A DNA stretch of 64,000 bases from an uncultured Gammaproteobacteria bacterium (GCA_964472415.1 CAYYLC010000002.1:32470-96469); one strand, 5' to 3'; shown: positions 1,335-36,288, counted from the first letter of the stretch. The notes: generated by a model from the letters alone, not told the origin. Made by a program: numbers and translations.

Positions 1335-1358
1335 TTAAGGCCGCTTTTTTAGTTTTTC

Positions 1359-1398
1359 AAACCCTTTCTTAAGTACACAGGAAGGGTTTGTTTTTTTA
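1359..1398 (+). terminator. Rho-independent terminator after the 729-1334 gene
   Basis: Hairpin aaacccttt...aagggttt followed by a T-run (tgttttttt). It lies between the convergent 729 gene and the sortase gene. Confidence 0.5.
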
Positions 1399-1953: not shown

Positions 1954-1983
1954 AAGTATTGTATCTTACCGTACGAGGCTACT

Positions 1984-5411: not shown

Positions 5412-5507
5412 TTTTTTAGTTTTATTTTTTAATCTATTTTTAATTTTTGTTTTGGGTTTTGTAGAGGTGCTGCCGAAGTGCTAGCAACCACCTCTACTCC
5501 CGCCCAA

Positions 5508-6788
5508 TTAGTTGGACATTCCAAATGTTGCGAAAAATGCTGCCCAGCTGAATGAGAATTCAAGGTTTGGCATTTCTGGCATATCAAAAGAAAAGTCTCC
5601 TAAGATGTTTTCGTTTCCACTGTTTGAAACAGTCGTATCAGAAACAACGTTTCCGGTAGTAATGCTTGGATCAGAATATTCTCCCTCTCCAACATTGTAA
5701 CCAGCTTCGTTATTTCCAGCGTCTGCATCAGCTTCTACGTTGTTGGTCAAATTAGCAGTGTTTCCCTGTCCAACAGTTTGTGTGTTGTCAAGAGTTAAGC
5801 CGATGTAATTTTCGTCTTTATCCCACCAATTTTTCCACCATTTGTGATCTTTGTCACCTGCATTAGCTCCGTTTCCGGAAATTTCAGCAGTGACATCGTA
5901 TTCACATCCGCAATCAACATCTGCTGCATTGAAGTTAACAGCATTGTCAACTCCAACAGTTACTGTTGAATCACCACCCATACCAGCATTGATGTAAACA
6001 TCACCGCCAGTGTTGTAGTTTGCTTTATTGTCACCAGTCTCAGCATCTGCACCTACATTATTAGTAATGTTTGCTGCATTATTCTGAGAAAGTCTTGTGT
6101 CGTTTGTAAGCGCAGCTGCGATTTCATTATCAGATCCTGATCCGTTTCCGATAATCACAAAGCTTGCTGATGGTGTAGGGGTTGCGCTGTTTCCGCTTCC
6201 AATTCGAGCAATATTAGTGTTTGCTTGAGTAGTTACGTCAACATTTGCGAATGCTTTACCAGTATTTATATGAACTTCGCCGCCGGTGTTTTCACCTGCT
6301 TTGTTGTTCCCAGTCTGAGCATCAACTCCTACATTATTTGTTACATTAGCAGTATTTTTCTGATTAACAGTAGTTTTGTTCTCATTTACGAGTCCAACTT
6401 TGTTGTCAGAATCTGAACCGTTCTTTTTAACGGTAACGTCAGCGCCTCCTGCTGCACAACAATCAACCTCAGCAATATTCTTATTGAGGTCGTTTGAAAC
6501 ATTAGCAGTTACATCTGCTTTACCGGTATTAACGTAAACGTCTCCACCAGTATTGTAGTTAGCTTTATTGTCGCCTGTATCTGCTTTTGTTGTTACGTTG
6601 TTGGTGACATTTGCTGTGTTATTCTGGTTAACGGTAGTTTTATTGTTAGATTCAACAATTACTTTATTATCAGATCCTGATCCGTTTCCAGAGATTTCTA
6701 TAGTACCTGCGAGTGCTGGAGTAGCAACATTAAGAAGCATAGCTCCTGCTGCGAGTACTGAAAAGGTTTGTTTTGTAAAATTTGTCAT
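5508..6788 (-). CDS. Secreted Asn/Thr-rich repeat surface protein (four copies of the ~48-aa module)
   Basis: Start chosen at MTNFTKQTFSVLAAGAMLLNVATPALA (signal peptide), preceded by AAGGAGGTG 9 nt upstream; the track ORF extends to 6860. Repeats follow QNNTANVTNNV...TGDNKANYNTGGDVYVNTG. Interspersed motifs: VDCCAAGG and VDCGCEYD. Confidence 0.75.
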   Translation of the reverse strand: MTNFTKQTFSVLAAGAMLLNVATPALAGTIEISGNGSGSDNKVIVESNNKTTVNQNNTANVTNNVTTKADTGDNKANYNTGGDVYVNTGKADVTANVSNDLNKNIAEVDCCAAGGADVTVKKNGSDSDNKVGLVNENKTTVNQKNTANVTNNVGVDAQTGNNKAGENTGGEVHINTGKAFANVDVTTQANTNIARIGSGNSATPTPSASFVIIGNGSGSDNEIAAALTNDTRLSQNNAANITNNVGADAETGDNKANYNTGGDVYINAGMGGDSTVTVGVDNAVNFNAADVDCGCEYDVTAEISGNGANAGDKDHKWWKNWWDKDENYIGLTLDNTQTVGQGNTANLTNNVEADADAGNNEAGYNVGEGEYSDPSITTGNVVSDTTVSNSGNENILGDFSFDMPEMPNLEFSFSWAAFFATFGMSN

Positions 6789-6879
6789 TATTTGTTTCAC
6801 CTCCTTCTCATAATGATTGTTCGATTTCTCGAACGCACTTCGTAAACTTGCTCCGCACATTTCGCCTTCGGTAGCCCCT

Positions 6880-18977: not shown

Positions 18978-21413
18978 CTATTTTTCTAATATATAATTAT
19001 TATCATGATCAAGTGTCACAAAGATCTTTTCTCCCTTTCTAATTGTCTCTTCTAGAATCCCTCGGGAAATAAGATTCTCGATATGCTCCTCTATGTATCT
19101 TCTCACATTTCGGGCACCAAAGTCAGCATCAAATGCCTCACGAGAAATTTTAGCTATTGAACTTTCTGAAAAACTGATATCAATACTTTGTTGTAATAAT
19201 TTTTCTTTGAGATCCATAAGCATTAGGTCTGCAATTTTTATTACATGCTCTTTTGCCAAGGGATGAAACACAACAACATCGCTAAATCTATTGATGAGCT
19301 CTGGCCGGAATATTTCCTTTGTAAGGACGAACTCTATTAACTCTGTTTTTATATTCTCTTCTCCTGTTGCAATCTTCTGACGGATAAACTCACTTCCGGC
19401 ATTTGATGTTGCGATAATTATCGCATTAGAAAAAGAAACCTTTTTCCCTTTATTATTTGTCACAAATCCTTCATCAAGAATTTGTAGGAATACATCTAAA
19501 AGTCGCGTATTCGCTTTCTCAAATTCGTCAAGGAGCACCACTGAGAATGGATTTTTTACAATCTTATCTATTAAACTTTCTGAAAAACTCTGCTCTCCAG
19601 GCATTTCTCCCAATAGTTTTTTCATCGATTCCTCCGTCTGATATTCTGACATGTCAACTCGAATCATTTTCTTTTCATCGCCAAAATATTCCTTTGAGAG
19701 GAGTTTTGCCATCGTCGTCTTCCCCACACCACTGGGTCCTAAAAATAAAAATGACGCGATTGGTCCTTGGCTTTTTTTTAATCCGCTCCTTAATCGCCTT
19801 ACTGCATTCGATACTGCTGAAACTGCTTCATTTTGACCCACTAGTCGCTTATGAAGCGTGTCTTCTAGATTGAGTAATTTCTTCTTCTCCTCAACAGTAG
19901 GCGCAGACAAATTTACGCCAGTCTTCTCCACTATAAGCTCTTGCACGTCCGCTGCAGTAATTGTATTTCTTCCTGCATGAAATACTCGGACTATTGTGTC
20001 TTCCAGAAGTCGTATTGCAGAACCAGGAAGCAACAGATTTGACGAATATAAATTTGCAGAATTGATAATTTCCCGAACTGCTCCATACGTCACAATTACA
20101 TTCGAGCTTTTTTCCCTAATCTCAATATCATGAATTGCCATAAATAATGTAGTTTTTTCGTCTGGCTCATCAAGCGAGATCGCGTGAAAATGAATCTGAA
20201 CTGAAGATTTTGGTGCAATAAAATCTTTATATGCTTGTGGTGTCGTCGTTCCGATAATCTGCACACGGCTACTTTCTAAATATGGCTCAAGTGCCCCTGA
20301 AATATCAAAATTAAATCCACCCCCACCAAAAATATTCTCTATGCTCTCCAAAAATACAATAACATTTCCCGCATGAGAAACTTCAGTAAAAATATTATTC
20401 AATCTCCTCTCTATCTCTCCCCTATCCTTTGCACCGGAAATCAACCTATCAATAAACAAAAAATATATCCTTTTTCTCTTGAGATTTTTCGTGATCTCTC
20501 CTTTATGCGCATCATACGCAACGTCCATCACTAACGTCGTCTTCCCAACGCCCGGATTCCCAATCAAAAGAACATTACTTGAAGATCCTCGCGAAAGGCT
20601 TTCTATCATTTGCCGATATTCTTTTTCTCTCCCCACTGCTTTTGGTTCATATCCAAGGCGTATTACTTCACTCGTAAAATCAGATGTATATTTTTTTGTA
20701 GCAGGAGTCCAACCATGTATCAATTGGTCGAAAATACCACTTCCATTAAAAGTACCCTGCAACACTTCCGTCGGGTCTTCAATACGAAATCTTTTCCTCA
20801 CCCAAAACAAAATAACCAACATATCTTGAGCCATTAACCCCTCTTGTTCTAAGATTTTTACACTTGGCTCTTGAAGTAAAATATAAGCAACTAATACATC
20901 TACTGCATGGATATATTTTCCTTGAATCATCTGCACCAATTCCCCAGCCTTTTTTAAAAGTTCATCTTTGGAAAGATTTATATCGACAAGCTGAAGTGAA
21001 GAATTTATTTTTTGAATAGCAAATCTTCCTTCTTTTGTACGGGCAATCTGTACAACAAGCTCATGGCTTGTCTGTGGTGACAGCATGTCTGCTCGAACAT
21101 TAAACAACGTAGCTTCATAGAGATTTTCAGCATTAGTTACTGTCCTTGCCGGATTTAGGGTACGGAGTTTTTTAATAAATAATTCTTGGAGGATTAACAC
21201 AAAAAGGAACGGTGAGAGAATCAAGAGTATCCGAACATTATCAAAAAAAAGTATCCCAATTACAAAAACCAGCATGAATAATACTCCTCGCACAAACAAT
21301 GCTTCTTTTGTATTCAAAATTTTATAGAGTTTAAAATGATTAGAGCCCAACATAGAAAAGATATAATAATAACCCTGGAAGTATAAAAAAGAGTGCAATG
21401 ATAAAAAGTTCAA
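18978..21413 (-). CDS. ClpA/ClpC-like double-AAA+ ATPase with N-terminal transmembrane segments; no M-domain; no obvious ClpP-docking tripeptide
   Basis: Two Walker A motifs (LIGNPGVGKTT and LFLGPSGVGKTT) and a Clp_N-like region. Hydrophobic segments lie at the N-terminus (VLFMLVFVIGILFF, LLILSPFLFVLIL). A short linker separates AAA1 from AAA2. No [IVL]GF loop seen between ATSNAGS and FRPELINRF. Confidence 0.7.
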   Translation of the reverse strand: MNFLSLHSFLYFQGYYYIFSMLGSNHFKLYKILNTKEALFVRGVLFMLVFVIGILFFDNVRILLILSPFLFVLILQELFIKKLRTLNPARTVTNAENLYEATLFNVRADMLSPQTSHELVVQIARTKEGRFAIQKINSSLQLVDINLSKDELLKKAGELVQMIQGKYIHAVDVLVAYILLQEPSVKILEQEGLMAQDMLVILFWVRKRFRIEDPTEVLQGTFNGSGIFDQLIHGWTPATKKYTSDFTSEVIRLGYEPKAVGREKEYRQMIESLSRGSSSNVLLIGNPGVGKTTLVMDVAYDAHKGEITKNLKRKRIYFLFIDRLISGAKDRGEIERRLNNIFTEVSHAGNVIVFLESIENIFGGGGFNFDISGALEPYLESSRVQIIGTTTPQAYKDFIAPKSSVQIHFHAISLDEPDEKTTLFMAIHDIEIREKSSNVIVTYGAVREIINSANLYSSNLLLPGSAIRLLEDTIVRVFHAGRNTITAADVQELIVEKTGVNLSAPTVEEKKKLLNLEDTLHKRLVGQNEAVSAVSNAVRRLRSGLKKSQGPIASFLFLGPSGVGKTTMAKLLSKEYFGDEKKMIRVDMSEYQTEESMKKLLGEMPGEQSFSESLIDKIVKNPFSVVLLDEFEKANTRLLDVFLQILDEGFVTNNKGKKVSFSNAIIIATSNAGSEFIRQKIATGEENIKTELIEFVLTKEIFRPELINRFSDVVVFHPLAKEHVIKIADLMLMDLKEKLLQQSIDISFSESSIAKISREAFDADFGARNVRRYIEEHIENLISRGILEETIRKGEKIFVTLDHDNNYILEK

Positions 21414-21675
21414 TTATGATAAGGATAAGGAAAAAAAATCCAACCAAACTCAAAAGGAAAGTCTTAATGAAAATCCCAAATACGATAGAAAATAATACTA
21501 ATCCTTTCCGATACTCATTCTTCAAAGGTTTAAAGAATGTTTGCAAAAGAAGACCTACGGAAAATAATTTTGCAAGATATGAGTTAAGTTTTACGAAAAA
21601 ATCTATTACCCCAAACCCTACATCATGATACCAAAAAACAAGAAGATCCAATGGATACATGAGGGCAGTTTTCAT
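21340..21675 (-). CDS. Small polytopic membrane protein ORF overlapping the start of the Clp-like gene (separate gene or frameshifted N-terminus)
   Basis: 111 aa, very hydrophobic (FFLILIIIELFIIALFFILPGLLLYLF). It overlaps the downstream Clp ORF by 74 nt in a different frame. Confidence 0.25.
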   Translation of the reverse strand: MKTALMYPLDLLVFWYHDVGFGVIDFFVKLNSYLAKLFSVGLLLQTFFKPLKNEYRKGLVLFSIVFGIFIKTFLLSLVGFFFLILIIIELFIIALFFILPGLLLYLFYVGL

Positions 21676-21724: not shown

Positions 21725-22591
21725 CTAAAACCATCCTTTTTTCGAACTCTCTTTCTCAAACTCCTCAATAAGTTTTTTCTGCTTCGAATTCAGCTTTTTA
21801 GGGATTTGAATTTTTATTTGCACAAAATGACTCCCCTTTTGACTACTATTAATCCGCTTTATCCCCTTATCCTTTATGCGAATAAGTGCACCCGGCTGAG
21901 TTCCCTGAGGAATCTTCAGTTTAATCGTTCCATCAAGTGCTCGAATTTCAGTAATTCCACCAAGTAAAGCGAGTGTAAAAGAAATCTCTTCTTCAGAAAA
22001 AATATCAGATCCCCGTCGTTCAAAAAAATCATGGGGTGCAACATCAATCACCACATCAAACTCCTCAAATCGAATCCGTTGCCCACTACTGATTCCAGCA
22101 GGGATTTTTATACTCCGCTCTTTCCCTTCAACTGCCACCTTCTTTGTTACCCCTTTTACCGCCTCCATAAATTCAATCCTGAGTGAATACACCGGCTTTC
22201 TCTGCCCAAAAGGACTTCCACCACCAAAGAATTGCTCAAAAATATCAAATGGATCATTAAACCCAAAATCTTGATTATTTGCATTCTGTCCAGATGAGTA
22301 ATAATACCGGAATGGTCCTCCTCCGCCACCGCCAAATGGCCCTCCCCCATACGACCCACCAGCATCACCTCTTGGCCCTTCACTTGATCCATACTGATCA
22401 TAATTTTGCCGCTTTTGAGGATTTGAAAGCACTTCATATGCCTCATTGATTTCCTTAAATTTTCCTTCCGCATCCTTTGATTTGTTCTTATCCGGATGAT
22501 ATTCTACAGCTAGCTTTCTATATGCTTTTTTCAATTCATCAGCAGTAGCATTTTTTGATACTCCTAAAACTTGATAATAATCTTTCGCCAT
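21725..22591 (-). CDS. DnaJ-family co-chaperone lacking the zinc-finger domain (type II / CbpA-like)
   Basis: J-domain [33 protein letters not shown], a G/F-rich region, then C-terminal beta domains with no CxxCxGxG repeats. Confidence 0.8.
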
Positions 22592-22629: not shown

Positions 22630-24459
22630 TTACTGACTCGTACAGATTAGAGGGCATAACTGTATACTACCTTCACCTTGATTACACGATGGATCAAAAT
22701 CACACCGATAATATTTTATGGGCGTAGGAGTAGCAGTAGGCTTTTTTGCCGCTTCTGTAGGAGGCTGTATAGGATCATTAGTCGGTAATGGCCCAGAAGT
22801 AGGCTGGATTACTACCGTAACAGTAGGCTGTGCGATATCTCTCGTAACCCGAATGGGAACCTGAATAGAGGGGCTATTCTGATCAAGAATAAGGTCTTCT
22901 GTACTTATCCCTTGGTAGCCTATGCGAAATGTCCCCGGAAAAAGGCTATCGAAAATAAAGGTTCCATCAGTAAGCGTCGCAGTCGTATCAGAATATGCTC
23001 CTGAAAGCTCAACTATCTGATTCTCCATAGGTGAATCTCCAGCATCAAAGGAGCCACTATTATTAGTATCTTCATATATAATACCTTGAATATAATATTG
23101 CGCAACACCAGGGGTCAGTGTTACTTGAGGGTCAGGGGTCAATGTAGGTATTGTAATACTCCCACTCCGTCCACAATTTGCTATCGCATTTGCGATATTC
23201 AGGCGTGGACCAATAGAAGACGATGAGGAAGTGCCATCCGCATTACTCACTAAGCAACTTTCCACTTCAGCTGATGTAAGTCCTGAATTCACAGAGAGCA
23301 AGAGTGCTGCAGCACCTGCTACATGAGGCGCTGCCATTGACGTTCCTTGCATCACTTTATAACTAGCACCAGGAATAGTAGATAATATATTTACACCAGG
23401 AGCCGAAATATCAACAGTATCTCCATAATTACTAAATGATGCTTTTCCATCATTTTGTGTCGACGCACCTACCGAAATTACTCCTTGGCATGAAGCGGGA
23501 GTAAACCCTACTGCATCCGTATTACTATTCCCTGCTGCGACAACTACAACGACCCCTTTAGAAATGCCTTCATTAATTGCATTTTGATACGACGACTGCG
23601 GAGCGCACGACCCTCCTCCACCAAGACTCATATTAATCACTCTCGCTCCATTAGTTATTGCATATTCTATCCCTGAAACAATACTCTGAGTAGTACCCCC
23701 GCATCGACCGTATGCTGGACCCATGGTCTTTACGGGCATAATACGAACATCCCAATTCACGCCCACAACCCCCACATCATTATCACCCACTGCACCAACT
23801 GTTCCTGCGACATGGGTTCCGTGACCACATTCATCAGATGGATCGGAGTCATTGGAATAAAAATCGTATCCTGAAGTCAACCTACCAGATAAGTCTGGAT
23901 GCGAGAGATCAATTCCACTATCAATCACCGCGACAGTGATCGCACTCGATCCGATCGTAGTATCCCATGCGACCGGCGCTTGTATTTTTTCTAGTCCCCA
24001 CAAACTAGAATACTGAGGATCATTTGGAATACGAAATGGTTCCATAATAAAGTTCGGTTCAGAAGCAAGTATTTCATTAATATGAGAAAGCTCTTCTTGA
24101 AGCACTCCAATATCTTTTCCTTCTTCAAGCTTCAATAAATAATACCTACTCAATAATCCCTCCATGGATTCATACGCCTTCTCCTGACTCTCTACTCCGA
24201 ACGCTTTCAGCCTTATCTCTAGATCTTGTCTCTGAGAATCACTTAACTCATGAGGCGCTTTATCTTCTCTATAGTTAACAAGTAATTCATAAGGAACATA
24301 TGGCGCTACCGGAGGAATCGCAACATACGGATCACGACTCAAAAAGTATCCTACTACAAAGCTTCCTATCCCCAAAAAAAGAACTCCGGAAAGAGCGACT
24401 ACTAGTTTCTTATTCTTGAAATATTTAGAACGTTTCAAATTGCGTATTTGGCTCGGCAT
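22630..24459 (-). CDS. Subtilisin-like serine protease (S8) with N-terminal TM, I9-like propeptide, CarboxypepD_reg-like domain and Cys-rich C-terminal tail
   Basis: Catalytic Asp (VAVIDSGID), His (HGTHVAGT) and Ser (GTSMAAPHVAGAAALL). The C-terminus reads YYRCDFDPSCNQGEGSIQLCPLICTSQ. Confidence 0.85.
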   Translation of the reverse strand: MPSQIRNLKRSKYFKNKKLVVALSGVLFLGIGSFVVGYFLSRDPYVAIPPVAPYVPYELLVNYREDKAPHELSDSQRQDLEIRLKAFGVESQEKAYESMEGLLSRYYLLKLEEGKDIGVLQEELSHINEILASEPNFIMEPFRIPNDPQYSSLWGLEKIQAPVAWDTTIGSSAITVAVIDSGIDLSHPDLSGRLTSGYDFYSNDSDPSDECGHGTHVAGTVGAVGDNDVGVVGVNWDVRIMPVKTMGPAYGRCGGTTQSIVSGIEYAITNGARVINMSLGGGGSCAPQSSYQNAINEGISKGVVVVVAAGNSNTDAVGFTPASCQGVISVGASTQNDGKASFSNYGDTVDISAPGVNILSTIPGASYKVMQGTSMAAPHVAGAAALLLSVNSGLTSAEVESCLVSNADGTSSSSSIGPRLNIANAIANCGRSGSITIPTLTPDPQVTLTPGVAQYYIQGIIYEDTNNSGSFDAGDSPMENQIVELSGAYSDTTATLTDGTFIFDSLFPGTFRIGYQGISTEDLILDQNSPSIQVPIRVTRDIAQPTVTVVIQPTSGPLPTNDPIQPPTEAAKKPTATPTPIKYYRCDFDPSCNQGEGSIQLCPLICTSQ

Positions 24460-24874
24460 TTACTACTTCTGGCAACAGATAGATTTGCTGTGCTACTTCT
24501 TCTATATTAGTACCTTGCTGAAACTTTAACAAGTAATATCTGCTCAAAGCTCCTTCTTCTGCTTCATACGCCCTCTCTTGAGAAATAACCCCAAAGCTCT
24601 CAAAGAGACTCAAAATCTCTTGCTGCCGTTCCGGCACTAAATTATCAAACTCCTGACCCTCAGAATATTGAATAATAAGCTCCTCTTCTACACGGGGTGC
24701 ATCAGGAAATGTAGGAAGCGGTGCTTTTTGCGTCGGCGTAGGAATCAATAGGACATGATCTTCAGACTCTTCCACGCTACTCGCCAGAAAAAATAACACC
24801 ACTGGGATTAATACTGCAACACCGAGAAGGATGACTACTATTTTTCTATTTTTTACAGAAAGTTTTTGTATCAT
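24425..24874 (-). CDS. Membrane-anchored stand-alone subtilisin-propeptide (inhibitor I9)-like protein, paralogous to the N-terminus of the downstream S8 protease
   Basis: TM (IVVILLGVAVLIPVVLFFLA), then ELIIQYSEGQEFDNLVPERQQEILSLFESFGVISQERAYEAEEGALSRYYLLKF... This aligns with the S8 gene segment ELLVNYREDKAPHELSDSQRQDLEIRLKAFGVESQEKAYESMEGLLSRYYLLKL. It overlaps the S8 gene by 35 nt. Confidence 0.6.
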   Translation of the reverse strand: MIQKLSVKNRKIVVILLGVAVLIPVVLFFLASSVEESEDHVLLIPTPTQKAPLPTFPDAPRVEEELIIQYSEGQEFDNLVPERQQEILSLFESFGVISQERAYEAEEGALSRYYLLKFQQGTNIEEVAQQIYLLPEVVNAEPNTQFETF

Positions 24875-27855
24875 TGTGTTGTTTGAGAATCTCCATTTAC
24901 TGCCATAGTTAATGCCTCACCAGTCGCAGGGTCAACAGGAGGAGGGGCTGGAGTTGGATCTTGAGTAATTGGTGCTGCCGGATCAACAATTATTCCACTA
25001 TTTTGCGGAGGTAGCGGTTGACCAGGAGGATACATTCCTTGATTCATTTGAGGATTTCCACCCTGCTGAAGATTGTATACCCCATTTTGCGGCACTACCT
25101 GCCCTCCCTGTTGCACACCATCTTGCCTAAGAGACGGATCCAATTGCGTAGGGTTTTGTTGGGCAGTTGGATTATTAGGGTCTACTGGAATTGTACCTTG
25201 TTGAGGAGGAGCTCCCATCTCCTGCTGCTGATTCTGTGAATTCAATGATTTTTTAAAAGTAAATTGTTTCGTTTGCTCATCATAATCTACGATAATTATA
25301 TCTCCTTGAACAAATTTCTTCCCAATAATATCCATGCTTATCGGGTTTTCTATAACTGACTGGATGAGTCGCCTCAACGGACGGGCACCATACACAGGAT
25401 CAAATCCATCCTTTGCTAAAATCTCAACTGCTTTCTCCGTTATCTCGAGCCCGAATCCTTGCTCTTTCAAAAGTTTCTGCGTATTCTTAATCCCCAACTT
25501 CGAGATCGCATTCATATATTTTTGAGTCAATGGTTTAAAAATGGCAACACCATCAAACCTATTTATAAGTTCTGGTCTAAAGAATTTGATAAGCTCATCC
25601 ATAAGATTCTTGGAGAGCTCCTGGAATACTTTCTCATCAATTTTCTCCTCATCTGTCATTCCTGCTTCCACACTTGAGCTCGGTGGCTGTTCATTTTGAG
25701 AATTTTGATTTTCAGCACTAGGCACAGCTTGAGCCTGTTCAGCACTTACCTCTGCCCCTTTTTCCTTATTATCTGCTACAGAAAGCTCCTTTACTTCTTT
25801 TTGTGTAATTAATGTTTCTTGAATCAATCTGCTCCCAATGTTTGATGTTGCAATAACAATCGTGTTTTTAAATGAAATCGTATTTCCTTTATTATCAGTT
25901 AGCCTTCCATCCTCAAGGAGCTGAAGAAGGATATTAAATACATCCGGGTGTGCTTTCTCTACCTCATCAAGCAACACTATAGAATATGGCTTATGCCTGA
26001 CCGCCTCAGTTAACTGTCCGCCCTCTTCATACCCTACATATCCAGGAGGTGCACCAATGAGCTTTGCAACCTCATGTTTTTCCATATATTCAGACATATC
26101 GAGCCTGACCATCGCATCATCTCTTCCAAATAAAATTTCTGCGAGTGTTTTTGCAAGCTCTGTTTTTCCGACTCCTGTAGGACCCAAAAACATAAATGAT
26201 GCTATTGGCCTATTTGCCGAAGCGAGACCAATCCTCCCACGACGCACTGCTTCTGAGACTGCCTTTACTGCCTCTTCTTGATCAATTAGCCTTTGATGAA
26301 TCAAATCCTCAAGCTGCAAAAGCTTTTTACTTTCATCCTCAGTAAGTTTTGTAACAGGAATTCCTGTCCATGCACTTACAACCTTTTCTATATCAGCCCT
26401 AACAACTTGTGTATCTTTTCGCTTCCCCTCAGCAGCCATAAGCTTTACCTCCGCTGCTGCCTCATCTATTAAATCAATTGATTTATCAGGAAGGTGCCGC
26501 TCACCGATATATTTTTTCGAGAGTTTTACTGAATATTCTATTGCCTCAGGAGTGATAGTTACATTATGAAACTTTTCATATTTTACCTGTAAAACCTTCA
26601 TCATTTCTATTGCCGTCTCGACGCTTGGCTCTTCTACAATTATCGCCTGGAAACGTCTCTGAAATGCCTTGTCTTTTTCAAAGAACTTTCTATATTCTGC
26701 AGTAGTCGTAGTCCCAATAATCTGCAATTGCCCTCGTGCAAGATATGGCTTAATGATGTTTGATGCATCCATCGCACCATCTGTTGAACCAGCGCCAATA
26801 AGCGTATGAATCTCGTCAATAAATAATAGATATTTCCCTTCAGAAAGCATCACTTCTTTAATGACATTCTTCAATCGCTCTTCAAATTCTCCCCTATGCG
26901 AAGCCCCAGCAATAAGAGAAGTTAAATCAAGTTGAATTATTTTCTTATCTTGAAGTTCTTTTGGGAGTTTTTTCTGGACCATTAACTGTGCAAGTGCTTC
27001 AACAATTGCTGTTTTTCCAACTCCTGCCTCCCCAATTAAAATTGGATTATTTTTACTCCGCCTGAGCAATATATGCACAGTGCGCTCTATTTCTTTTTCA
27101 CGGCCGACAACTGGATCAAGCTTTCCGTTTTGCGCCTCAAGCGTTAAATCGATTCCGAACTCCTCAATAACACTTTTTTTACCGGTCTTGAACTTTGTAT
27201 CTTTTTGGATTGCCTCCTCAAAAGCCTTTTTTTCTATTCCTTTCGCCGAAAGAAGTTGTGCAGCTGACTCAGAAGAAAACAGCGCAAGCAATAAATCTTC
27301 TGGTGAAACAAAGCTTGTTCCTCGTTTCTGAGAATTCTGATACGCTTCATCAAAGATCCTCTGTGTTGCTTCTGATAAAATTGGAGGAGTTGTTGCAGTT
27401 CCCGTTTGCTGATGTGTTTCAATTTCCTGTGCGAGCAGCGCCACATCTACTTGATGCTTCTGGAGAATTTTATATATCTCTCGATCATGCGTTAACGCAA
27501 GAAGAAGCATATCAGGCTCAATTGTAGGATGCTGAAAACGTCTGGCGTCATTCTGAGCCTGCTGAAGAATTTGATTGGATCTAGAATCCAAATGGGAAAG
27601 AGCATTAACGTTTTGTCGTTTTGACGGATCCATAGTTGTTCCCGCAATACCTTGATTTGGGGCCATTCCATTTTGCATTTGAACTTGAGGGGGATATCCT
27701 TGCAAAGGCATCTGTGGTGCTCCCTGAACCATCTGATTTTGCTGAGGATCACCTTGCCCTACTACTTGATTATTTGGCGCAAATAGACCCTGCGGGTTCT
27801 GTGGTGCAGGCTTCGCCTCATCAAATTGTTTTTTCTTAAATAAGTCTCCAAACAT
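24871..27855 (-). CDS. ClpA/ClpC-like double-AAA+ ATPase with Gln/Asn/Pro-rich low-complexity N- and C-terminal extensions
   Basis: Clp_N domain, then AAA1 Walker A IGEAGVGKTA and AAA2 Walker A FLGPTGVGKTE, with no M-domain. The first ~75 aa (PQNPQGLFAPNNQVVGQGDPQQNQMVQGAPQMPLQGYPPQVQMQNG) and the last ~120 aa are Q/N/P-rich. Confidence 0.8.
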   Translation of the reverse strand: MFGDLFKKKQFDEAKPAPQNPQGLFAPNNQVVGQGDPQQNQMVQGAPQMPLQGYPPQVQMQNGMAPNQGIAGTTMDPSKRQNVNALSHLDSRSNQILQQAQNDARRFQHPTIEPDMLLLALTHDREIYKILQKHQVDVALLAQEIETHQQTGTATTPPILSEATQRIFDEAYQNSQKRGTSFVSPEDLLLALFSSESAAQLLSAKGIEKKAFEEAIQKDTKFKTGKKSVIEEFGIDLTLEAQNGKLDPVVGREKEIERTVHILLRRSKNNPILIGEAGVGKTAIVEALAQLMVQKKLPKELQDKKIIQLDLTSLIAGASHRGEFEERLKNVIKEVMLSEGKYLLFIDEIHTLIGAGSTDGAMDASNIIKPYLARGQLQIIGTTTTAEYRKFFEKDKAFQRRFQAIIVEEPSVETAIEMMKVLQVKYEKFHNVTITPEAIEYSVKLSKKYIGERHLPDKSIDLIDEAAAEVKLMAAEGKRKDTQVVRADIEKVVSAWTGIPVTKLTEDESKKLLQLEDLIHQRLIDQEEAVKAVSEAVRRGRIGLASANRPIASFMFLGPTGVGKTELAKTLAEILFGRDDAMVRLDMSEYMEKHEVAKLIGAPPGYVGYEEGGQLTEAVRHKPYSIVLLDEVEKAHPDVFNILLQLLEDGRLTDNKGNTISFKNTIVIATSNIGSRLIQETLITQKEVKELSVADNKEKGAEVSAEQAQAVPSAENQNSQNEQPPSSSVEAGMTDEEKIDEKVFQELSKNLMDELIKFFRPELINRFDGVAIFKPLTQKYMNAISKLGIKNTQKLLKEQGFGLEITEKAVEILAKDGFDPVYGARPLRRLIQSVIENPISMDIIGKKFVQGDIIIVDYDEQTKQFTFKKSLNSQNQQQEMGAPPQQGTIPVDPNNPTAQQNPTQLDPSLRQDGVQQGGQVVPQNGVYNLQQGGNPQMNQGMYPPGQPLPPQNSGIIVDPAAPITQDPTPAPPPVDPATGEALTMAVNGDSQTTQ

Positions 27856-27904
27856 ATTTCTATTATAGACAAATTACAAACTATTGACCAAATTATAAGT
27901 CCCT

Positions 27905-30292
27905 TTATGCATCTTGCTCTCCTGAATTATTATCTTTATTTTGCTCAATTGGCAATTCTCGTCGCATAACCATCTCAGCAGAAGCTGATTCTTGCCGTGG
28001 CTTATTTTTAAGAAGCATATCATCTTCCTCACGCTTTTGGGTTAATGCTTCTAGCACCTCACGACCAGCAGCTTGCTTTGCCTTGAGATATGCAATAACC
28101 TCTGCTTTTGAAAATCCTCCAATTAACAAGAATGGCAACACATCCGAAACTGTTTCCATGCCTTTTTGTATTTGTGTTTGATCTGGAGAGCTTAAGAGAT
28201 TTATTGCTTCTTCTATCTTTTGACCATCCTGAGTAACCCACTCTTCCTTTGAAAGCCTCTTTCCATCAAGCGGTGCTGGTGGTTCCATATTGGCGTAATT
28301 TTCCTTCCATATATTCTTTACTTCTTCATACTCATCCAAGCTTACTTGTTGAACACGATTGACTACCGGCAGTGATGCTTGTGCAATAGCACTTACCCCT
28401 TCTTGCGGAAGTACTTTTTCTGCAAGCTGGCTTCCTTTCTCTTTTTCTGCAAATAATTTCTCCTTTACTTTATCGAGAAGTGATTGTCGCTCTTCCTCAT
28501 TAATTGTCTCACTTGCAACCTTATTACTCATGTCCAAAACATAGGTTGCGAGCGGATTCCCTTGACTCTGCGCAGAGAGTAACTCTTCACGAATAGATTG
28601 TGCCTTTTGTCGCTCTTGGGGAGAAAGTGCTCTTGTAGGAGACGCGATATGCTGAAGCGTAAGATTCAAACGATTCTTTACCATCTCGCCTGCCATTCGT
28701 CCTCGCATACCAACTTGTGATCCAAGACGTGACGCACTCAAAATAGAAGATGCAAGAGGGTCTCCCTTCTGCTGCATTTGAACCAATTTTTCTTTAATAG
28801 TTGTAAACTTCTCACGTTCAATAACAGGAGCTGTCGCAGGAGATGAGATTTGACTCAGCTTATTTGTTACCTCAGTGCGCTGCTGCTGAATAGTCTGATT
28901 TTTTGTCAATGAGGCTGATTCCATACGCGCAATATCACGCATTTTTGGAATTGAGAGATTTGCAAGTCGCATTACCTCTGTCGTTTCATTTGTAACTGCA
29001 GAAGTCCTTTGTTGAGAAGATACCCCTTTATTTACATCAGCACTCGTTATTTTCTTAACAGGTATCTGCATTTGCCGCTTATTTGAAAATGGCAAACTCA
29101 TAGCACGCCCAGCTCCTGCCGGACTAATTGGCGGTGGGGGAGGAGGAGATCCAGGAGGAGATCCAGCAGGTTGATTGATAAATGGAATGTTTGTCCTTGC
29201 TATTCGCCGATACAACGCAGTCTCGGTAAATGATGCATTATTTATGTAATCCAAAAATATCTGCAACAACAGCCAGGGAAGGAGGATCACTACCCAGAGC
29301 ATTAAGAGCGCTACGACATACTGTGCAAATGTGTCACTCAAATTTACAGAATTTGTAATTCCGATTCGCTGCGCTGGACCTCCAAGTAAAATACTAATTG
29401 CTGTCGGATATACTACCTGACCTTGTTCTACTCCAGAAAAATCAAATCCTAATGGAATTCTATCTCGCCACATTCCAACTAAACCATGGAGGAAAATCGC
29501 AAAAAGAGGAGCGTATAAAAGCCATCGGAAAAATTCTCCCACCCATACTTTGGCAGTATTTCTCAGTGGAGAAAAAAAGATTAAAAGCGGAAAAACAGGC
29601 GAGATGATAAGAAAAAACCATAATATAATTTTCCTGATTAGGAGAATACCTGACATCACATAATATGTCACCGCAGTAATCCGAACAAGTAAAAGCGAAA
29701 TATAGGCAGACTCATCATATTGGATACCTGCCTTTCGATAACCCATAAATTGATAATCAAATCCTATATAGAGAAGGTCTGTTGGATCAATCAATCGTTC
29801 ATTCTGAGACTCTGGATCTGTCGTTGCAAGAAAGAAACCTTGAATAACATCAAAAAACTGATAAAGAAATCTCACAATCGCAAAGGACAAAACAATAAAA
29901 AGGAGAATTATGATGAATCGAGGAATAAACCGCACAATGGTAAGATTCTGCCCTCTTGTAATAATCATAATAAACGCAGCAACAAGAATAAAAAGTACGA
30001 TTAACGCAAGAACTATTCGAAGAATCTCGCTCCAAAATACTGCTAGAGGATTCGTTGCAGCATCTTCTCCAAGATCAATCCACTCATAATTCTGCAATGT
30101 CCATTCTAAAAACGCATTTGCACGAGCTGCCGTTTTCCCAATAAACGTTACCTCTTGATCTTCTCTCCAATCGGCTAACACATCGGGCACAGGGGTAGTG
30201 CCCACAACTTGTGCTGAAGCAGTGCCGGGAAAGGAAAAGACACCTGATAAAAATAGGACTGTGGTAAACAATATGGGCAGTAATCGTTTCAT
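27905..30292 (-). CDS. Large polytopic membrane protein, VirB6/TrbL-like (putative type IV secretion-like channel component) with a long coiled C-terminal cytoplasmic domain
   Basis: Signal peptide, about 6-7 TM helices over residues 90-350, a poly-Pro linker (SPPGSPPPPPPISPAG), then a ~400-aa Gln/Glu/Lys-rich domain. It lies immediately downstream of a VirB2-like pilin gene. The family assignment is by architecture. Confidence 0.35.
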   Translation of the reverse strand: MKRLLPILFTTVLFLSGVFSFPGTASAQVVGTTPVPDVLADWREDQEVTFIGKTAARANAFLEWTLQNYEWIDLGEDAATNPLAVFWSEILRIVLALIVLFILVAAFIMIITRGQNLTIVRFIPRFIIILLFIVLSFAIVRFLYQFFDVIQGFFLATTDPESQNERLIDPTDLLYIGFDYQFMGYRKAGIQYDESAYISLLLVRITAVTYYVMSGILLIRKIILWFFLIISPVFPLLIFFSPLRNTAKVWVGEFFRWLLYAPLFAIFLHGLVGMWRDRIPLGFDFSGVEQGQVVYPTAISILLGGPAQRIGITNSVNLSDTFAQYVVALLMLWVVILLPWLLLQIFLDYINNASFTETALYRRIARTNIPFINQPAGSPPGSPPPPPPISPAGAGRAMSLPFSNKRQMQIPVKKITSADVNKGVSSQQRTSAVTNETTEVMRLANLSIPKMRDIARMESASLTKNQTIQQQRTEVTNKLSQISSPATAPVIEREKFTTIKEKLVQMQQKGDPLASSILSASRLGSQVGMRGRMAGEMVKNRLNLTLQHIASPTRALSPQERQKAQSIREELLSAQSQGNPLATYVLDMSNKVASETINEEERQSLLDKVKEKLFAEKEKGSQLAEKVLPQEGVSAIAQASLPVVNRVQQVSLDEYEEVKNIWKENYANMEPPAPLDGKRLSKEEWVTQDGQKIEEAINLLSSPDQTQIQKGMETVSDVLPFLLIGGFSKAEVIAYLKAKQAAGREVLEALTQKREEDDMLLKNKPRQESASAEMVMRRELPIEQNKDNNSGEQDA

Positions 30293-30295
30293 AGC

Positions 30296-30592
30296 TTAGC
30301 TGAATCCGGGAATTTGTAAAATATCTCCACTAATAATTTGCATAAACACAAACCCGAAAACAGCAAGCAAGACGCCAATAATAGAATACGTTATGTATGA
30401 TTTTCCTATTTGAAGCTTACTTGGATCGCCCTGAGAAGTCATAATATAATACCCACCCACAATAATAAAAATAAGCGCAACCATTCCAATAAACCCAAGC
30501 CCTATTCCATAAAATTTCTCAACAAATCCGACAGGGTCATTCGGGATACACCCAAAATCTGTCATTATTTCACTAGGAGCACACACAGCCAT
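30296..30592 (-). CDS. VirB2/TrbC-like T4SS-type pilin (two-TM hairpin)
   Basis: Two conserved N-terminal Cys (C4, C15), TM1 FYGIGLGFIGMVALIFIIVGGYYIM, the loop motif TSQGDPSKLQIGKSYI, and TM2 YSIIGVLLAVFGFVFMQII. Confidence 0.4.
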   Translation of the reverse strand: MAVCAPSEIMTDFGCIPNDPVGFVEKFYGIGLGFIGMVALIFIIVGGYYIMTSQGDPSKLQIGKSYITYSIIGVLLAVFGFVFMQIISGDILQIPGFS

Positions 30593-30645
30593 AGTATCAT
30601 CGTATCATGCAGAAGAACGCAAGACAAGAATTGGAGAAGAGGAAA

Positions 30646-32553
30646 TTAGTTTTTTACGTCAGGCTCGTCTACGACTTCACCTTCCATAGATTCTTTTGTA
30701 TCTTTTTCAGGAGCTTCTTTCGTATCATCTGAAGAAGTCTTATCTGAAGAATCTGTTTGCTCAGCTTGAGAATACATTTTTTCACCAATCTTTGAGAGTG
30801 CCTCAGAAAGTTCCTTTGTTTTGCTTTCTATCTCATCCCTACTTTCTCCTTCAAGCGTCTTTCTCAAATCAGAGATAAGAGTCTCAAGGCCTTTCTTATC
30901 ATCTTCATTCATATCTTTCATATCATTGATTGTCTTCTCAGTAGTAATAATAAGCGCCTCTGCACTATTTTTTGCATCAATAATCTCTTTTTTCTTTTTA
31001 TCTTCTTCAGCATACATCTCCGCTTCTTTTGTCATTTTTTGTATTTCTTCATCAGAAAGACCGGTAGATCCAGTAATCGTAATGCTTTGCTCTTTTCCAG
31101 TTGCTTTGTCTTTTGCAGTAACAGACAACATTCCTGAAGCATCAATATCAAATGTCACTTCAACCTGAGGCACGCCTCGTGGTGCTGGTGGAATTCCATC
31201 AAGAATAAAACGTCCAAGCGACTTATTATCAGCGGCCATTGGGCGCTCTCCTTGAAGAATATGAATCTCTACTTGAGTTTGATTATCAGCTGCGGTTGAA
31301 AATATTTGTGATTTCTTCGTAGGAATTGTCGCATTTTTCTCAATTAATGGCGTTGCGACTCCGCCCAGCGTTTCAATAGAAAGTGTTAATGGTGTGACAT
31401 CAAGAAGTAGAACATCTTTCACATCTCCCCCTAAAACTCCAGCCTGTACTGCAGCACCAACTGCTACAACCTCATCAGGGTTTACAGACTTATTTGGCTC
31501 CTTCCCAAAAAACTTTGTTACTTCTTCCACAATCTTTGGCATTCGCGTCATTCCTCCCACCAGGATAACTTCATCAATTTTCCCTGATTCTACTTTTGCA
31601 TCTTTGAGCGCCTTTTTTACCGGATCAAAAGTTCTCGTAATCAAATCTGAAACAAGAGATTCCAGCTTTGAGCGAGAGAGCTTTGTCGTGAGATGAAGTG
31701 GGCCACTATCAGACATGGTGATAAATGGCTGATTGATCTCTACCTCCTTTGAAGAAGAGAGTTCTATTTTCGCTTTCTCAGCCGCCTCTTTCAGACGCTG
31801 CAAAGCCTGCTTATCCGCTCGCAAATCCACACTGTGTTCTTTCTTAAATTCATCTGCGAGATAGTCGATCAACGCTTGATCGAAATCATCTCCTCCAAGG
31901 TGCGTGTCTCCATTTGTGGCCTTTACTTCGTATACACCCTCACCAAGTTCCAGAATAGAAATATCAAACGTTCCACCACCCAAATCATATACTGCAATTG
32001 TGTGTGCATGCTTTTTATCCATTCCATAAGAAAGTGCAGCTGCAGTCGGCTCGTTTACAATTCTGAGCACTTCAAGCCCAGCAATTTCACCTGCTTGTTT
32101 CGTCGCCTGACGCTGAGCATCATCAAAATATGCAGGGACAGTAATTACTGCTTGCGTTACTTTATCACCAAGATAATCTTCTGCATCCTTTTTGAGTTTT
32201 TGGAGAACCTTCGCTGAAATTTCCTGTGGAGTATATGTCTTTCCGTCTACTTCAACTGCCACCATCCCATTTTTTCCTTCGACGATCTTATACGGAAGGA
32301 ATTTTATAGCCTCCTGTACCTCTTTATCCTTGAAGCGTCTTCCCATAAGCCTCTTTACAGAGTAAATAATTTTTTCCGGTTTTAGAACCATCTGACGCTT
32401 CGCAACTTCTCCTACCACTCCTTCAACAGGATCAACTACTGACGGGGTCGTGTTTTTACCTTCCGAATTAAAAATTACCTTCGGACTTCCACCCTCCATG
32501 ACAGCCATGCAAGAATTCGTTGTACCTAAATCTATTCCTATTATTTTTCCCAT
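30646..32553 (-). CDS. dnaK: Molecular chaperone DnaK (Hsp70)
   Basis: [26 protein letters not shown], and a full Hsp70 architecture with an acidic C-terminus. Start chosen at MGKIIG by homology; the track ORF extends to 32607. Confidence 0.95.
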
Positions 32554-32628: not shown

Positions 32629-33093
32629 TTAAATATTCTCTTCGCCACCCCCTACTCTTACCTGTGCGGGCCGAATTACTTTATCAAATAGCATAAACCC
32701 TGGCATCAATTCTGCAACTACAATATCTTTTTTTCCCTCTACCACATCAACGCACTCCATTTGATTCGGATCAAACTCCCTCCCCAATACTTCGATTCTT
32801 ACAACTCCTACCTCCTGCAGACTCTCCGTCAACTTCTTAATAGTTAGCTTAATTCCTTCATCTTCAATATATCTTTCTGCTAAGTATAAATTATCGAAAG
32901 CCGGCAAAAGCCTTTTTAAGAGCTCTTCGTTTGCATATCTGATAGAACCTGCTCGCTCCTCAAGGACGCGTCTTTCAAGATTCTGATAATCAGCAAGTGC
33001 CCTCTTCAAGTTCTCTTCAAGATTTGCTATTTGATTTTCAAAGTCCTTTACATCAGTCTTTTTCTTATTACCTGTTTTCTTCTCCTCTTTCAT
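32629..33093 (-). CDS. grpE: Nucleotide exchange factor GrpE
   Basis: Coiled N-terminus, then KRLLPAFDNL...VGVVRIEVLGREFDPNQMECV, typical of GrpE. It sits between hrcA and dnaK. Confidence 0.85.
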   Translation of the reverse strand: MKEEKKTGNKKKTDVKDFENQIANLEENLKRALADYQNLERRVLEERAGSIRYANEELLKRLLPAFDNLYLAERYIEDEGIKLTIKKLTESLQEVGVVRIEVLGREFDPNQMECVDVVEGKKDIVVAELMPGFMLFDKVIRPAQVRVGGGEENI

Positions 33094-33107: not shown

Positions 33108-33830
33108 TTACCAATCTGCAACCTCATCTACCAGTGACCCATAGTATCGAACAACTGGCAAGATGTATTCGTATCGCATCCGGAACGGTCCGATAACACC
33201 AATCGTTCCTGTATAACTTCGCCTTGTATTAAATTTTGCAAAAACAAAACTATACGGTCTCAAAACTTCTTGCTCAAACTCGTCTCCCAAAATTACCGTA
33301 CATTTCTCAGTAATCCTTCCATAAATTGCATCAAAATACTCTTCATTATCTAAAATTGCTAATAAGTTCTTCATGACATCAATGTCATAAAATTCTGGCA
33401 TTGAGAGAATGTTTGAATATCCTGCAAAAAATAAATCGCCTACGCTCGTACTCGCAACAGCAAGTGACTTTGTCTTCTCTGCCAATTTCTTTGTTGCTGC
33501 ACGTAAAAACTGTGCTTCTTTTGAACGCAAGTCCCAAATATTTTCTTTTGCCTCAACCTCTTCTGCAACAGAAAGCTCTTTTTCTTTCATAAGCTCGTTG
33601 ATGTAGAGCTTTATTGCTCTTGAAGTTGGAACATTTCCTGATGAGGAATGGGCTTTTGCAAGATATCCTTTTTTTACCATGCTTGCCGTTTCATTCCTAA
33701 TCGTAGCTGGACTTACTCCCAAGTCATATTTTTTCTCAAGAGTCTCAGACCCAACTGGACTTGCTGTATCTGTATATTCTTTGACAATGTGCTTCAAGAT
33801 CTCGATTTGTCGCTGCGTTAAATCGTACAT
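33108..33830 (-). CDS. hrcA: Heat-inducible transcription repressor HrcA
   Basis: MYDLTQRQIEILKHIVKEYTDTASPVGSETLEKKY (winged-helix N-terminus). Start chosen at MYDL so that the CIRCE operator lies upstream; the track ORF starts at 33908. Confidence 0.8.
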   Translation of the reverse strand: MYDLTQRQIEILKHIVKEYTDTASPVGSETLEKKYDLGVSPATIRNETASMVKKGYLAKAHSSSGNVPTSRAIKLYINELMKEKELSVAEEVEAKENIWDLRSKEAQFLRAATKKLAEKTKSLAVASTSVGDLFFAGYSNILSMPEFYDIDVMKNLLAILDNEEYFDAIYGRITEKCTVILGDEFEQEVLRPYSFVFAKFNTRRSYTGTIGVIGPFRMRYEYILPVVRYYGSLVDEVADW

Positions 33831-33853: not shown

Positions 33854-33880
33854 TTAGCACTAATATAGCATGACTGCTAA
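33854..33880. promoter_or_regulatory. CIRCE operator (HrcA binding site) upstream of hrcA-grpE-dnaK
   Basis: TTAGCACTA-ATATAGCAT-GACTGCTAA versus consensus TTAGCACTC-N9-GAGTGCTAA, one mismatch per half-site. Confidence 0.8.
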
Positions 33881-33912
33881 GTCTTGTCAAGAGCCTCCAT
33901 GATGTCAAATCA

Positions 33913-35759: not shown

Positions 35760-36194
35760 CTATTTTGTAGCCTTTACCTTTTTCGAAACTTTAATTTTTT
35801 TCGGTTCCTGTTTTTGAACCTTTTTAAAGGTGAGCTTCAAAATGCCATCCTCAAGCTCTGCCTTTGGCTCCTCATCTCGAACAATTCCCTCCGGAACTCG
35901 GAAAGAATAACTAAATGACGTTGCCATAGATGACATAAAATAGCGCCTCTTATCCTTCTCCTCCTGCCTATCTTCAGCGCTTCCAGTTACCCGGACTACC
36001 CCATCCTCAAACGTTATATCTATTCTATCTTCAAGGAGTCCAGGGACTGCTGCTTCTGCAACTACCGTGTCCGCAGTTTCATAAATATTTAAACCTTGGC
36101 CCATCAAGCGAGAGACACCGGGGATTGTAGGGAGATCCCAATCATCTTCAAAAAATCGTTCAATATTCCAAGGATTCCATCGTATGATTGCCAT
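35760..36194 (-). CDS. Hsp20/alpha-crystallin family small heat-shock protein
   Basis: Alpha-crystallin domain (...DGVVRVTGSAE...ILKLTFKK). Start chosen at MAIIRW, preceded by GGAGGTG. Confidence 0.85.
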   Translation of the reverse strand: MAIIRWNPWNIERFFEDDWDLPTIPGVSRLMGQGLNIYETADTVVAEAAVPGLLEDRIDITFEDGVVRVTGSAEDRQEEKDKRRYFMSSMATSFSYSFRVPEGIVRDEEPKAELEDGILKLTFKKVQKQEPKKIKVSKKVKATK

Positions 36195-36288
36195 ATTTTT
36201 CACCTCCTTCCGTTTGTATGTACATTAGCAATGTATCATAATAACTGCTAATTTGTCAACACTTTTATCGTCTGATATCATTATCTTC

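Follow-up and report, generated by a model that had tools for sequence, protein, structure and literature searches.

We analyzed a 64,000-nucleotide (nt) stretch of DNA (GCA_964472415.1, CAYYLC010000002.1:32470-96469; hereafter, the window) in which two adjacent genes, at positions 27905..30592, lie between dnaK and a clp gene. The larger encodes an "extended" VirB6/TrbL-type protein of 795 amino acids (aa), here named B6L, that consists of a signal peptide, a membrane domain with the five-helix VirB6 fold, a proline-rich linker and a helical-repeat tail; the smaller, judging by its sequence, encodes a divergent pilin of the VirB2 type that may polymerize into a pilus. The genome belongs to the uncultivated Candidatus Levybacteria (Patescibacteria, Microgenomatia), a group from which metagenome contigs match the window, and the pair is the fixed core of a gene cluster that extends across this order. 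The order-wide linkage is real, and within it the pair is tied more tightly to an atypical Hsp100 ATPase than to dnaK. Such a setting, a pilin and a VirB6-like protein beside an unusual Clp ATPase, is suggestive of a module for secretion or pilus formation in which an unfoldase takes part, and we tentatively favor, as the most likely explanation, a pilin and a VirB6 platform operating together with the adjacent Hsp100. B6L is also a strong candidate for the VirB6 of an entire order within the Microgenomatia, a group in which the only phylum-wide survey of Patescibacterial type IV secretion systems (T4SSs), published in 2025 (PMC12102498), found VirB6 to be almost missing.

The genes of the cluster and their regulatory elements are all on the minus strand of the window. 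The ATG of the pilin gene (30296..30592, 98 aa) is 53 nt downstream of the dnaK stop codon (30646), and only 3 nt (TAA-gct-ATG) separate the pilin from the B6L open reading frame (ORF; 27905..30292). The gene for a Clp-type protein with two AAA+ modules, ClpB1 (24871..27855), begins 49 nt downstream of B6L. A first-pass annotation of the window had described both ORFs, their neighbors dnaK and clp and the gaps of 3 and 53 nt, and the sequence contains all of these.

The same annotation had recognized a VirB2-like layout in the small protein, with a cysteine pair, two hydrophobic helices and a loop, and profile searches bear it out. The window protein matches the Pfam family T4SS_pilin (PF18895) with an E-value of 1.1e-5 and 25.9 bits, 0.7 under the cut-off of 26.6, and 31 of 32 orthologues match this family at E<0.01 (best value 3e-7). 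Many orthologues carry a precomputed PF18895 label. A match to the NCBIfam pilin-like family of Mycoplasma integrative and conjugative elements, NF045849, has an E-value of 1.2e-8. In the window protein and in the alignment of the 32 sequences, the layout is a pair of hydrophobic helices with a short basic loop (TSQGDPSKLQIGKSY in the window protein) between them; residues Cys4 and Cys15 are invariant across the alignment, and a C-terminal D-I-L-x-I-P-G-F motif is conserved. Size, two-helix hairpin and basic loop are shared with the VirB2-like pilins of Patescibacteria (PF18895) and with the Mbov_0395 family (NF045849), from which the window pilin is distinguished by its conserved N-terminal cysteine pair and by the absence of a cleavable leader of the kind present in VirB2, TrbC and TraA: there is no N-terminal hydrophobic segment in the 32-sequence alignment, the N-terminus being the hydrophilic region with the cysteine pair, and the conserved start codon follows the promoter element at a distance of 6 nt. 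The pilin orthologues are 54–100% identical, with a median of 62% to the window protein, which is above the values for hrcA or grpE. This single-copy, well conserved gene contrasts with the hypervariable pilin arrays near virB4, at ~25% identity (PMC12102498). Comparison of the pilin profile with PDB sequences gave only spurious transmembrane (TM) matches, and the homologue search returned close orthologues only and did not reach other pilin subfamilies.

No second pilin-like ORF is present in the window. In about 11 relatives (L045, L052, L053, L055, L060, L061, L064, L071, L072, L076 and L081) a second pilin-like gene is divergent from hrcA, on the opposite strand between metG and hrcA, and in one further locus (L088) an array of several pilin-like genes lies beside B6L and the Clp gene.

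B6L starts with a signal peptide (residues 1-28; 30209..30292) that is apparent from hydrophobicity, ends in an AXA-type site (...GTASA/Q) and is conserved in the alignment. It is followed by the VirB6-fold N-domain (residues 38-365; 29198..30181), with five long membrane helices and two acidic loops predicted to face outward, and by a disordered proline-rich linker (residues 373-430; 29003..29176) in which the predicted local distance difference test (pLDDT) is below 50 and which contains the hinge PPGSPPPPPPISP. Of the helical tail, ~400-445 aa in total, the first part (residues 431-640; 28373..29002) is built of about three copies of a ~50-aa unit, ...IA.P...ERE....I.EKL....QKGN.LA..IL.A, and the second is a conserved C-terminal helical domain (residues 641-762; 28007..28372) with many invariant columns, a pLDDT of 78-88 and the consensus NRVQQVS.EDYE.V...W.ENY ... 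ILPFLL.GGFS..E...YLKAK, for which neither a Pfam match nor a PDB sequence match was obtained. Hundreds of orthologues were found, ranging from 700 to 2790 aa; in relatives, the tail is duplicated as a whole or the number of repeat copies is expanded, up to the 2790-aa form.

A VirB6/TrbL-like architecture had likewise been proposed for this protein in the first-pass annotation, and both profile and structure comparisons point in that direction. B6L matches TrbL/VirB6 (PF04610) with an E-value of 0.0028 and 17.9 bits against a cut-off of 25.9, that is, under the curated threshold; at E<0.01, matches were obtained for nine of 21 orthologues, the best of them at 1.6e-5. Precomputed PF04610 or PF19590 labels are carried by a few orthologues. 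A search of Foldseek with the full-length model of B6L had VirB6 as the top match, yet with an E-value of 0.34, and the N-domain was then modelled alone. The resulting AlphaFold model, built from 82 sequences, has five long helices, a pLDDT of 85 and a predicted TM-score (pTM) of 0.82. When it was compared with the PDB, the best five matches were all TrwI/VirB6 chains of the plasmid R388 T4SS (probability 0.96-1.0, E-values from 7e-3 to 5e-2), and the sixth was unrelated (E=0.3). The target-normalised TM-scores of the five are 0.33-0.55, with three in the range 0.50-0.55. A sequence profile of the B6L family gave nothing significant against PDB sequences. We consider both family assignments, pilin and VirB6-like, well supported, by evidence that lies under formal thresholds.

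VirB6 has an outside N-terminus, five membrane helices and a cytoplasmic C-terminus. For B6L, the five AlphaFold helices and a loop charge that alternates over 71 sequences (-3.4, +3.1, -3.6, +2) would place the N-terminus outside and the tail in the cytoplasm, whereas a plain hydrophobicity count of six segments would place the tail outside. Of the topology given in the first-pass annotation, the signal peptide, the proline hinge and the helical tail hold; where it had about 6-7 TM helices, six hydrophobic segments follow the signal peptide, and AlphaFold models them as five long helices.

Several properties set B6L apart from known VirB6/TrbL proteins. Its N-domain has the same fold as TrwI of R388 (PDB 7O3V, 8RT9 and 8RTD) and A. 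tumefaciens VirB6, it shows weak TrbL profile matches, and its gene directly follows a pilin gene; however, members of the B6L family add a C-terminal helical-repeat tail of 450 to >2400 aa, are without virB3, virB4, virB5 or virB8 as neighbors, and are fixed beside an Hsp100 gene and chaperone genes. An exhaustive search of 1.84 billion representative sequences returned only 392 relatives at E<=1e-3, which marks the family as compact and isolated, and it revealed no bridge or gradient toward canonical TrbL. "Extended VirB6" proteins, such as TraG of the F plasmid and the RvhB6 paralogues of Rickettsiales, combine a VirB6-like polytopic N-domain with a large C-terminal extension, as B6L does, but their extensions are not known to be related in sequence to the B6L tail, that of F TraG is periplasmic, and they are encoded in T4SS loci or genomes with a full VirB4 machine.

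The isolation of the family is among the points that would fit a role outside secretion, namely that of a lineage-specific factor for membrane-protein quality control or envelope stress whose likeness to VirB2 and VirB6 would be superficial, for example an anchor or adaptor that brings Hsp100 or DnaK to the membrane. The profile scores are below threshold, and all of the neighboring genes are proteostasis genes. Against this stand two independent families, pilin and VirB6, each of which indicates a T4SS and which are adjacent in a canonical virB2-virB6-like pairing, together with a fold match specific to VirB6 chains, and we regard such a role as the least probable of the explanations discussed here.

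The protein encoded next to the pair, ClpB1 (994 aa), has a Clp_N domain and two AAA+ modules in Pfam searches, with Q/P-rich extensions at its N- and C-terminal ends and a variable acidic insertion in the second nucleotide-binding domain (NBD2); its orthologues range from 795 to 1513 aa. In alignments to PDB sequences, residues ~412-527 of E. coli ClpB, the M-domain of ~116 residues, have no counterpart in ClpB1, and the linker at this position is 29-31 aa long in 61 of 65 orthologues. The M-domain is the coiled coil that docks DnaK and is required by ClpB for cooperation with DnaK. In addition, the ClpP-binding loop [ILV]G[FL] is absent from all 62 ClpB1 orthologues compared; inserted at its position is a segment that varies from 35 to 113 aa and reaches 339 aa at a single distant locus. 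By its predicted domain composition, ClpB1 is not a canonical ClpB.

The strength of the linkage was gauged from a scan with one genome per species, in which relatives were found in 148 species; 80 loci were fetched for neighborhood counts. About 70 of the 80 share the same-strand order hrcA-grpE-dnaK-(dnaJ)-pilin-B6L-ClpB1-(protease)-(dnaJ)-p111-ClpB2, and the position beside dnaK that the first-pass annotation had pointed out is conserved to this extent. The cluster is retained at B6L identities of 35-73%, and its recurrence in ~70 of 80 related genomes indicates that the arrangement is not due to chance. In the 52 loci with full 10-kb flanks, the cluster genes are found 48-52 times (48 for hrcA, grpE, dnaK and dnaJ; 51 for the pilin and ClpB1), against only 7-12 times (13-23%) for control neighbors located 5-8 kb away (hsp20, a PEGA protein and UbiA). 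Most of 79 loci have 0-15 nt between pilin and B6L, and the two genes are translationally coupled. Of 70 loci, 68 have ClpB1 as the next assigned cluster gene downstream of B6L; in eight of the 68, an unassigned gene of ~1.4 kb for a predicted secreted protein lies between the two.

The three genes pilin, B6L and ClpB1 remain together though dnaJ moves, preceding the pilin in some loci and following the protease in others, and though the protease family varies: the slot after the Hsp100 gene holds an S8 protease in the window, an M4 protease in L009 (15529..17811) and a protein with a faint M64-like match in L007 (16978..19686), a pattern suggestive of non-orthologous replacement at a retained position. 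The genes for p111 and ClpB2, farther downstream, are conserved in 41-44 of the 80 loci. In two loci (L066 and L084) the dnaK neighborhood has been lost and pilin-B6L-ClpB1 is kept. Seven distant members of the B6L family, with 37-45% identity in the N-domain, were also looked up, and four had informative flanks. Three of these four (31-34% overall and 40-45% N-domain identity) have a long Clp ATPase gene within 5 kb: in the first, the beginning of a ClpB1-like gene is visible after pilin and B6L; in the second, three lipoprotein genes separate B6L from a gene for a Clp ATPase of 1504 aa; in the third, a Clp ATPase of 1105 aa is encoded convergently. None of the four has dnaK near B6L.

Further genes are inserted in some loci. 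A ~460-aa predicted secreted or membrane-anchored protein is encoded between B6L and the Hsp100 at 12261..13652 in L022 and at 12320..13678 in L032, and a pair of predicted secreted or membrane-anchored proteins of 160 and 700 aa is encoded between dnaK and the pilin in L011 (7013..9649) and L030 (5918..8508). Directly upstream of a distant B6L relative, a divergent gene with a TraC-like (PF26593) label (L094, 422..1153, minus strand) is the sole conjugation-type neighbor seen in any locus. The length of the B6L tail is correlated with that of ClpB1 (rho 0.45), but this was dropped as evidence, since the control with the unrelated hrcA ORF length gave 0.55, which indicates phylogenetic or ORF-calling confounding. 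An origin of the pair from a mobile element was also rejected, as there is no integrase or tRNA gene and no compositional break, and the chromosomal position is conserved order-wide.

The first-pass annotation had noted that VirB4, VirB11 and a coupling ATPase are missing from the window, and Pfam scans of its ORFs of at least ~200 aa over the 64 kb agree, with no match to the VirB4, VirB11 or VirD4 families. Neither virB4 nor virB3 nor virB8 accompanies B6L in the window or within 10 kb on either side in four Pfam-annotated loci, and across the 80 loci there is no recurrent Walker-A ATPase other than Clp. In the loci examined, virB4 is never a neighbor of the B6L gene, whose fixed neighbor, within a chaperone cluster, is the gene for an atypical Hsp100. 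The published Patescibacterial T4SS, described as MPF-FATA-like (Quinonero-Coronel et al. 2025, PMC12102498), comes from the same phylum, uses the same pilin family, is chromosomal and has no relaxase; it differs in that its defining feature is VirB4, encoded near dnaA together with TrsD and VirB3, and no VirB6 is listed for it in Levybacteria. That survey does not mention dnaK, ClpB or chaperones, and our literature searches returned nothing on a linkage of VirB6, ClpB and dnaK.

The main alternative to a partnership with the Hsp100, which we rate as somewhat less probable, is that B6L is the "missing" VirB6 of Microgenomatia, encoded in trans and serving the virB4 locus near dnaA, and that the position among chaperone genes is a historical accident frozen in Levybacteria. 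The survey found VirB6 to be scarce in Microgenomatia and ascribed this scarcity to divergence, and it cites dispersed T4SS genes in Rickettsia (PMC12102498); B6L itself shows the VirB6 fold. For two VirB4-positive Levybacteria, Table S3 of the same work lists VirB4 grouped with TrsD and two VirB2 pilins, and additionally VirB1 and a type IV coupling protein; neither VirB6 nor a third pilin is listed, so that the survey records no VirB6 and no pilin beside dnaK for these two assemblies. The virB4 loci, however, already own pilins, and the linkage of pilin, B6L and Hsp100 outlasts rearrangements and lies far above background synteny. Moreover, one stretch of Table S1 of PMC12102498 records VirB4 in 20 of 44 Levybacteria assemblies and, among the ABY1 and Paceibacteria of the same stretch, in ~90%, whereas B6L relatives occur in 148 species; of the four assemblies common to that table and to our cluster loci, two are VirB4-positive and two VirB4-negative.

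In the mechanism that we favor, with the Hsp100 as partner of the pair, B6L would build membrane oligomers like those of VirB6 in solved T4SSs and provide a platform from which pilin may be extracted and assembled, or through which cargo may pass. Its tail would lie in the cytoplasm, and the Hsp100, being M-domain-less and apparently ClpP-independent, could work with B6L as an unfolding or pilin-extraction motor, either in addition to a VirB4 encoded elsewhere or instead of VirB4 in genomes that have none. The location in a heat-shock cluster would then reflect shared use of chaperones and AAA+ proteins and not control by HrcA, and read-through from the promoter of that cluster would be at most an add-on. 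Beyond homology, fold and gene order, all of this mechanism is our inference. A precedent for an Hsp100 ATPase that is either specific to a secretion machine or recruited by one, and whose gene accompanies that machine, is provided by ClpV of type VI secretion and by Francisella ClpB in the type VI system of that genus. These ATPases act on a contractile sheath and not on a VirB6 platform, and the role proposed here for the Hsp100 comes from gene order alone. By analogy, a bolder version can be conceived, an envelope machine altogether independent of VirB4 in which an extended VirB6 platform and a dedicated pilin would be driven by a specialized Hsp100 unfoldase, devoid of an M-domain and of ClpP binding, docked on the VirB6 tail in a ClpV-like role. 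We consider it unlikely; if true, it would represent a new class of pilus or protein-export apparatus, made of T4SS membrane parts and a Clp ATPase.

A number of observations weigh against a functional partnership of B6L and the Hsp100. The link between them rests on gene order, and order within one taxonomic order can be inherited and not selected. Both Pfam matches of the window proteins are under the gathering scores, and the E-values of the Foldseek matches are modest. The topology is ambiguous, as the six hydrophobic segments counted after the signal peptide would put the tail outside. ClpB1 is highly conserved, at 54-78% identity, and may simply be the housekeeping Hsp100 of the cell. 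In the fourth informative distant relative, no Clp gene is found within 10 kb of B6L, and the VirB4-negative calls derive from incomplete metagenome-assembled genomes (MAGs).

A functional linkage would make this the first example in which membrane parts of a T4SS operate with a Clp-family motor, and it would provide a concrete, testable model of a pilus or export device in a group where about half of the genomes seem to be without VirB4. If it is only historical, the inventory of T4SS genes in Levybacteria is still corrected. Patescibacteria depend on host cells, and in Saccharibacteria a T4SS is essential to that lifestyle.

The first-pass annotation had further suggested that the pair may be co-transcribed with the HrcA operon governed by the controlling inverted repeat of chaperone expression (CIRCE), as a minimal T4SS-like channel or pilus module under heat-shock control; such a module would be induced by heat or stress. 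The operon itself is genuine. The genes hrcA (33108..33830), grpE (32629..33093) and dnaK (30646..32553), assigned from ORFs and from Pfam labels on an identical contig, are preceded by a CIRCE operator (33854..33880; 2 mismatches, 0.02 expected by chance) that overlaps a strong sigma-70 promoter of hrcA (TTGACA-17-TATATT with an upstream TG; promoter region including CIRCE, 33854..33890). The pair is on the same strand, and the 53-nt gap between dnaK and the pilin contains no terminator-like hairpin, so that read-through from the hrcA promoter is possible in the window; in related loci, such hairpins occur between dnaK or dnaJ and the pilin in only three of 51.

The distribution of regulatory elements nevertheless speaks against such control. 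In the 80 loci, CIRCE was found only before hrcA (47 loci) and hsp20 (nine loci), with no case upstream of the pilin or ClpB1. The pair carries an extended -10 promoter element of its own: in the window, TGATACGAT (30599..30607) ends 6 nt before the pilin ATG, and TGnTAnnnT followed 6-9 nt later by the in-frame pilin start recurs in 61 of 79 loci, against a frequency of 4.5% for the motif in random windows. A standard -35/-10 scan had missed this promoter, which emerged from the aligned upstream regions. Opposite-strand genes intervene between dnaK or dnaJ and the pilin in four loci (L014, L016, L075 and L079), and co-transcription with dnaK therefore cannot be the conserved feature; in four others (L066, L084, L091 and L093) dnaK is not beside the pair. 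Heat-shock or HrcA control of the pair is thus unsupported, and a stress-induced module of this kind appears improbable.

The short distance between the extended -10 element and the pilin ATG makes a leaderless transcript probable. ClpB1 is preceded by a promoter-like site (27862..27890; TGGTCA-17-TATAAT) whose -10 also ends 6 nt before the ATG, and TGnTAnnnT or TATAAT ending 5-8 nt upstream is seen at the gene starts 49061 (-), 22591 (-), 16859 (-), 8702 (+), 14181 (+) and 27855 (-), which include lepA and dnaJ. This pattern suggests that leaderless mRNAs from gene-proximal promoters are common in this organism. The nine relatives in which a CIRCE-like operator precedes hsp20 are L010, L028, L033, L041, L044, L046, L054, L057 and L059, and the HrcA regulon there includes hsp20; the hsp20 gene of the window (35760..36203) has no upstream CIRCE within 3 mismatches.

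Compared with the hrcA-grpE-dnaK-dnaJ CIRCE operon of Gram-positive bacteria, the window has the same hrcA-grpE-dnaK order and CIRCE over the promoter, but the genes for the pilin, B6L, the Hsp100, a propeptide-like protein and a protease lie between dnaK and dnaJ, and dnaJ and the pilin have promoter elements of their own. Downstream of ClpB1, the order is propeptide-like protein, S8 protease, dnaJ, p111 and ClpB2. According to Pfam, the first two (22630..24874) are a membrane-anchored propeptide-like protein of 149 aa and a secreted S8 subtilase of 609 aa; the former, encoded as a stand-alone protein before the protease, resembles the pro-region of that protease. The dnaJ gene (21725..22591) has its own element, TGCTAAAAT, 7 nt before the ATG. 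From its translation, p111 (21340..21675) is a small membrane protein of 111 aa with multiple TM segments. ClpB2 (18978..21353, ~791 aa) is a membrane-anchored Hsp100-like ATPase by Pfam and by PDB matches to ClpC/ClpB; it has two N-terminal TM helices and two P-loops and no Clp_N match, and the Walker B motif of NBD1 appears degenerate (VFLESIE).

Many MAGs with the Levybacteria-type cluster (among L010-L089), from binchicken and SRP co-assemblies, are titled "uncultured Gammaproteobacteria bacterium", and a few are titled Limnocylindrales, Lysobacterales or Sulfotelmatobacter. The gene content contradicts these titles, which are probably wrong. Elsewhere in the window, at 729..6860, lies a cluster of repeat surface proteins rich in Asn, Thr and Ser, of 201, 408, 768 and 450 aa. 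A 185-aa protein encoded beside it contains a sortase-like ...LILQTC... motif, read from the sequence alone and not from a hidden Markov model; in the cluster itself, the three largest proteins have no Pfam match and the two largest have a C-terminal membrane anchor.

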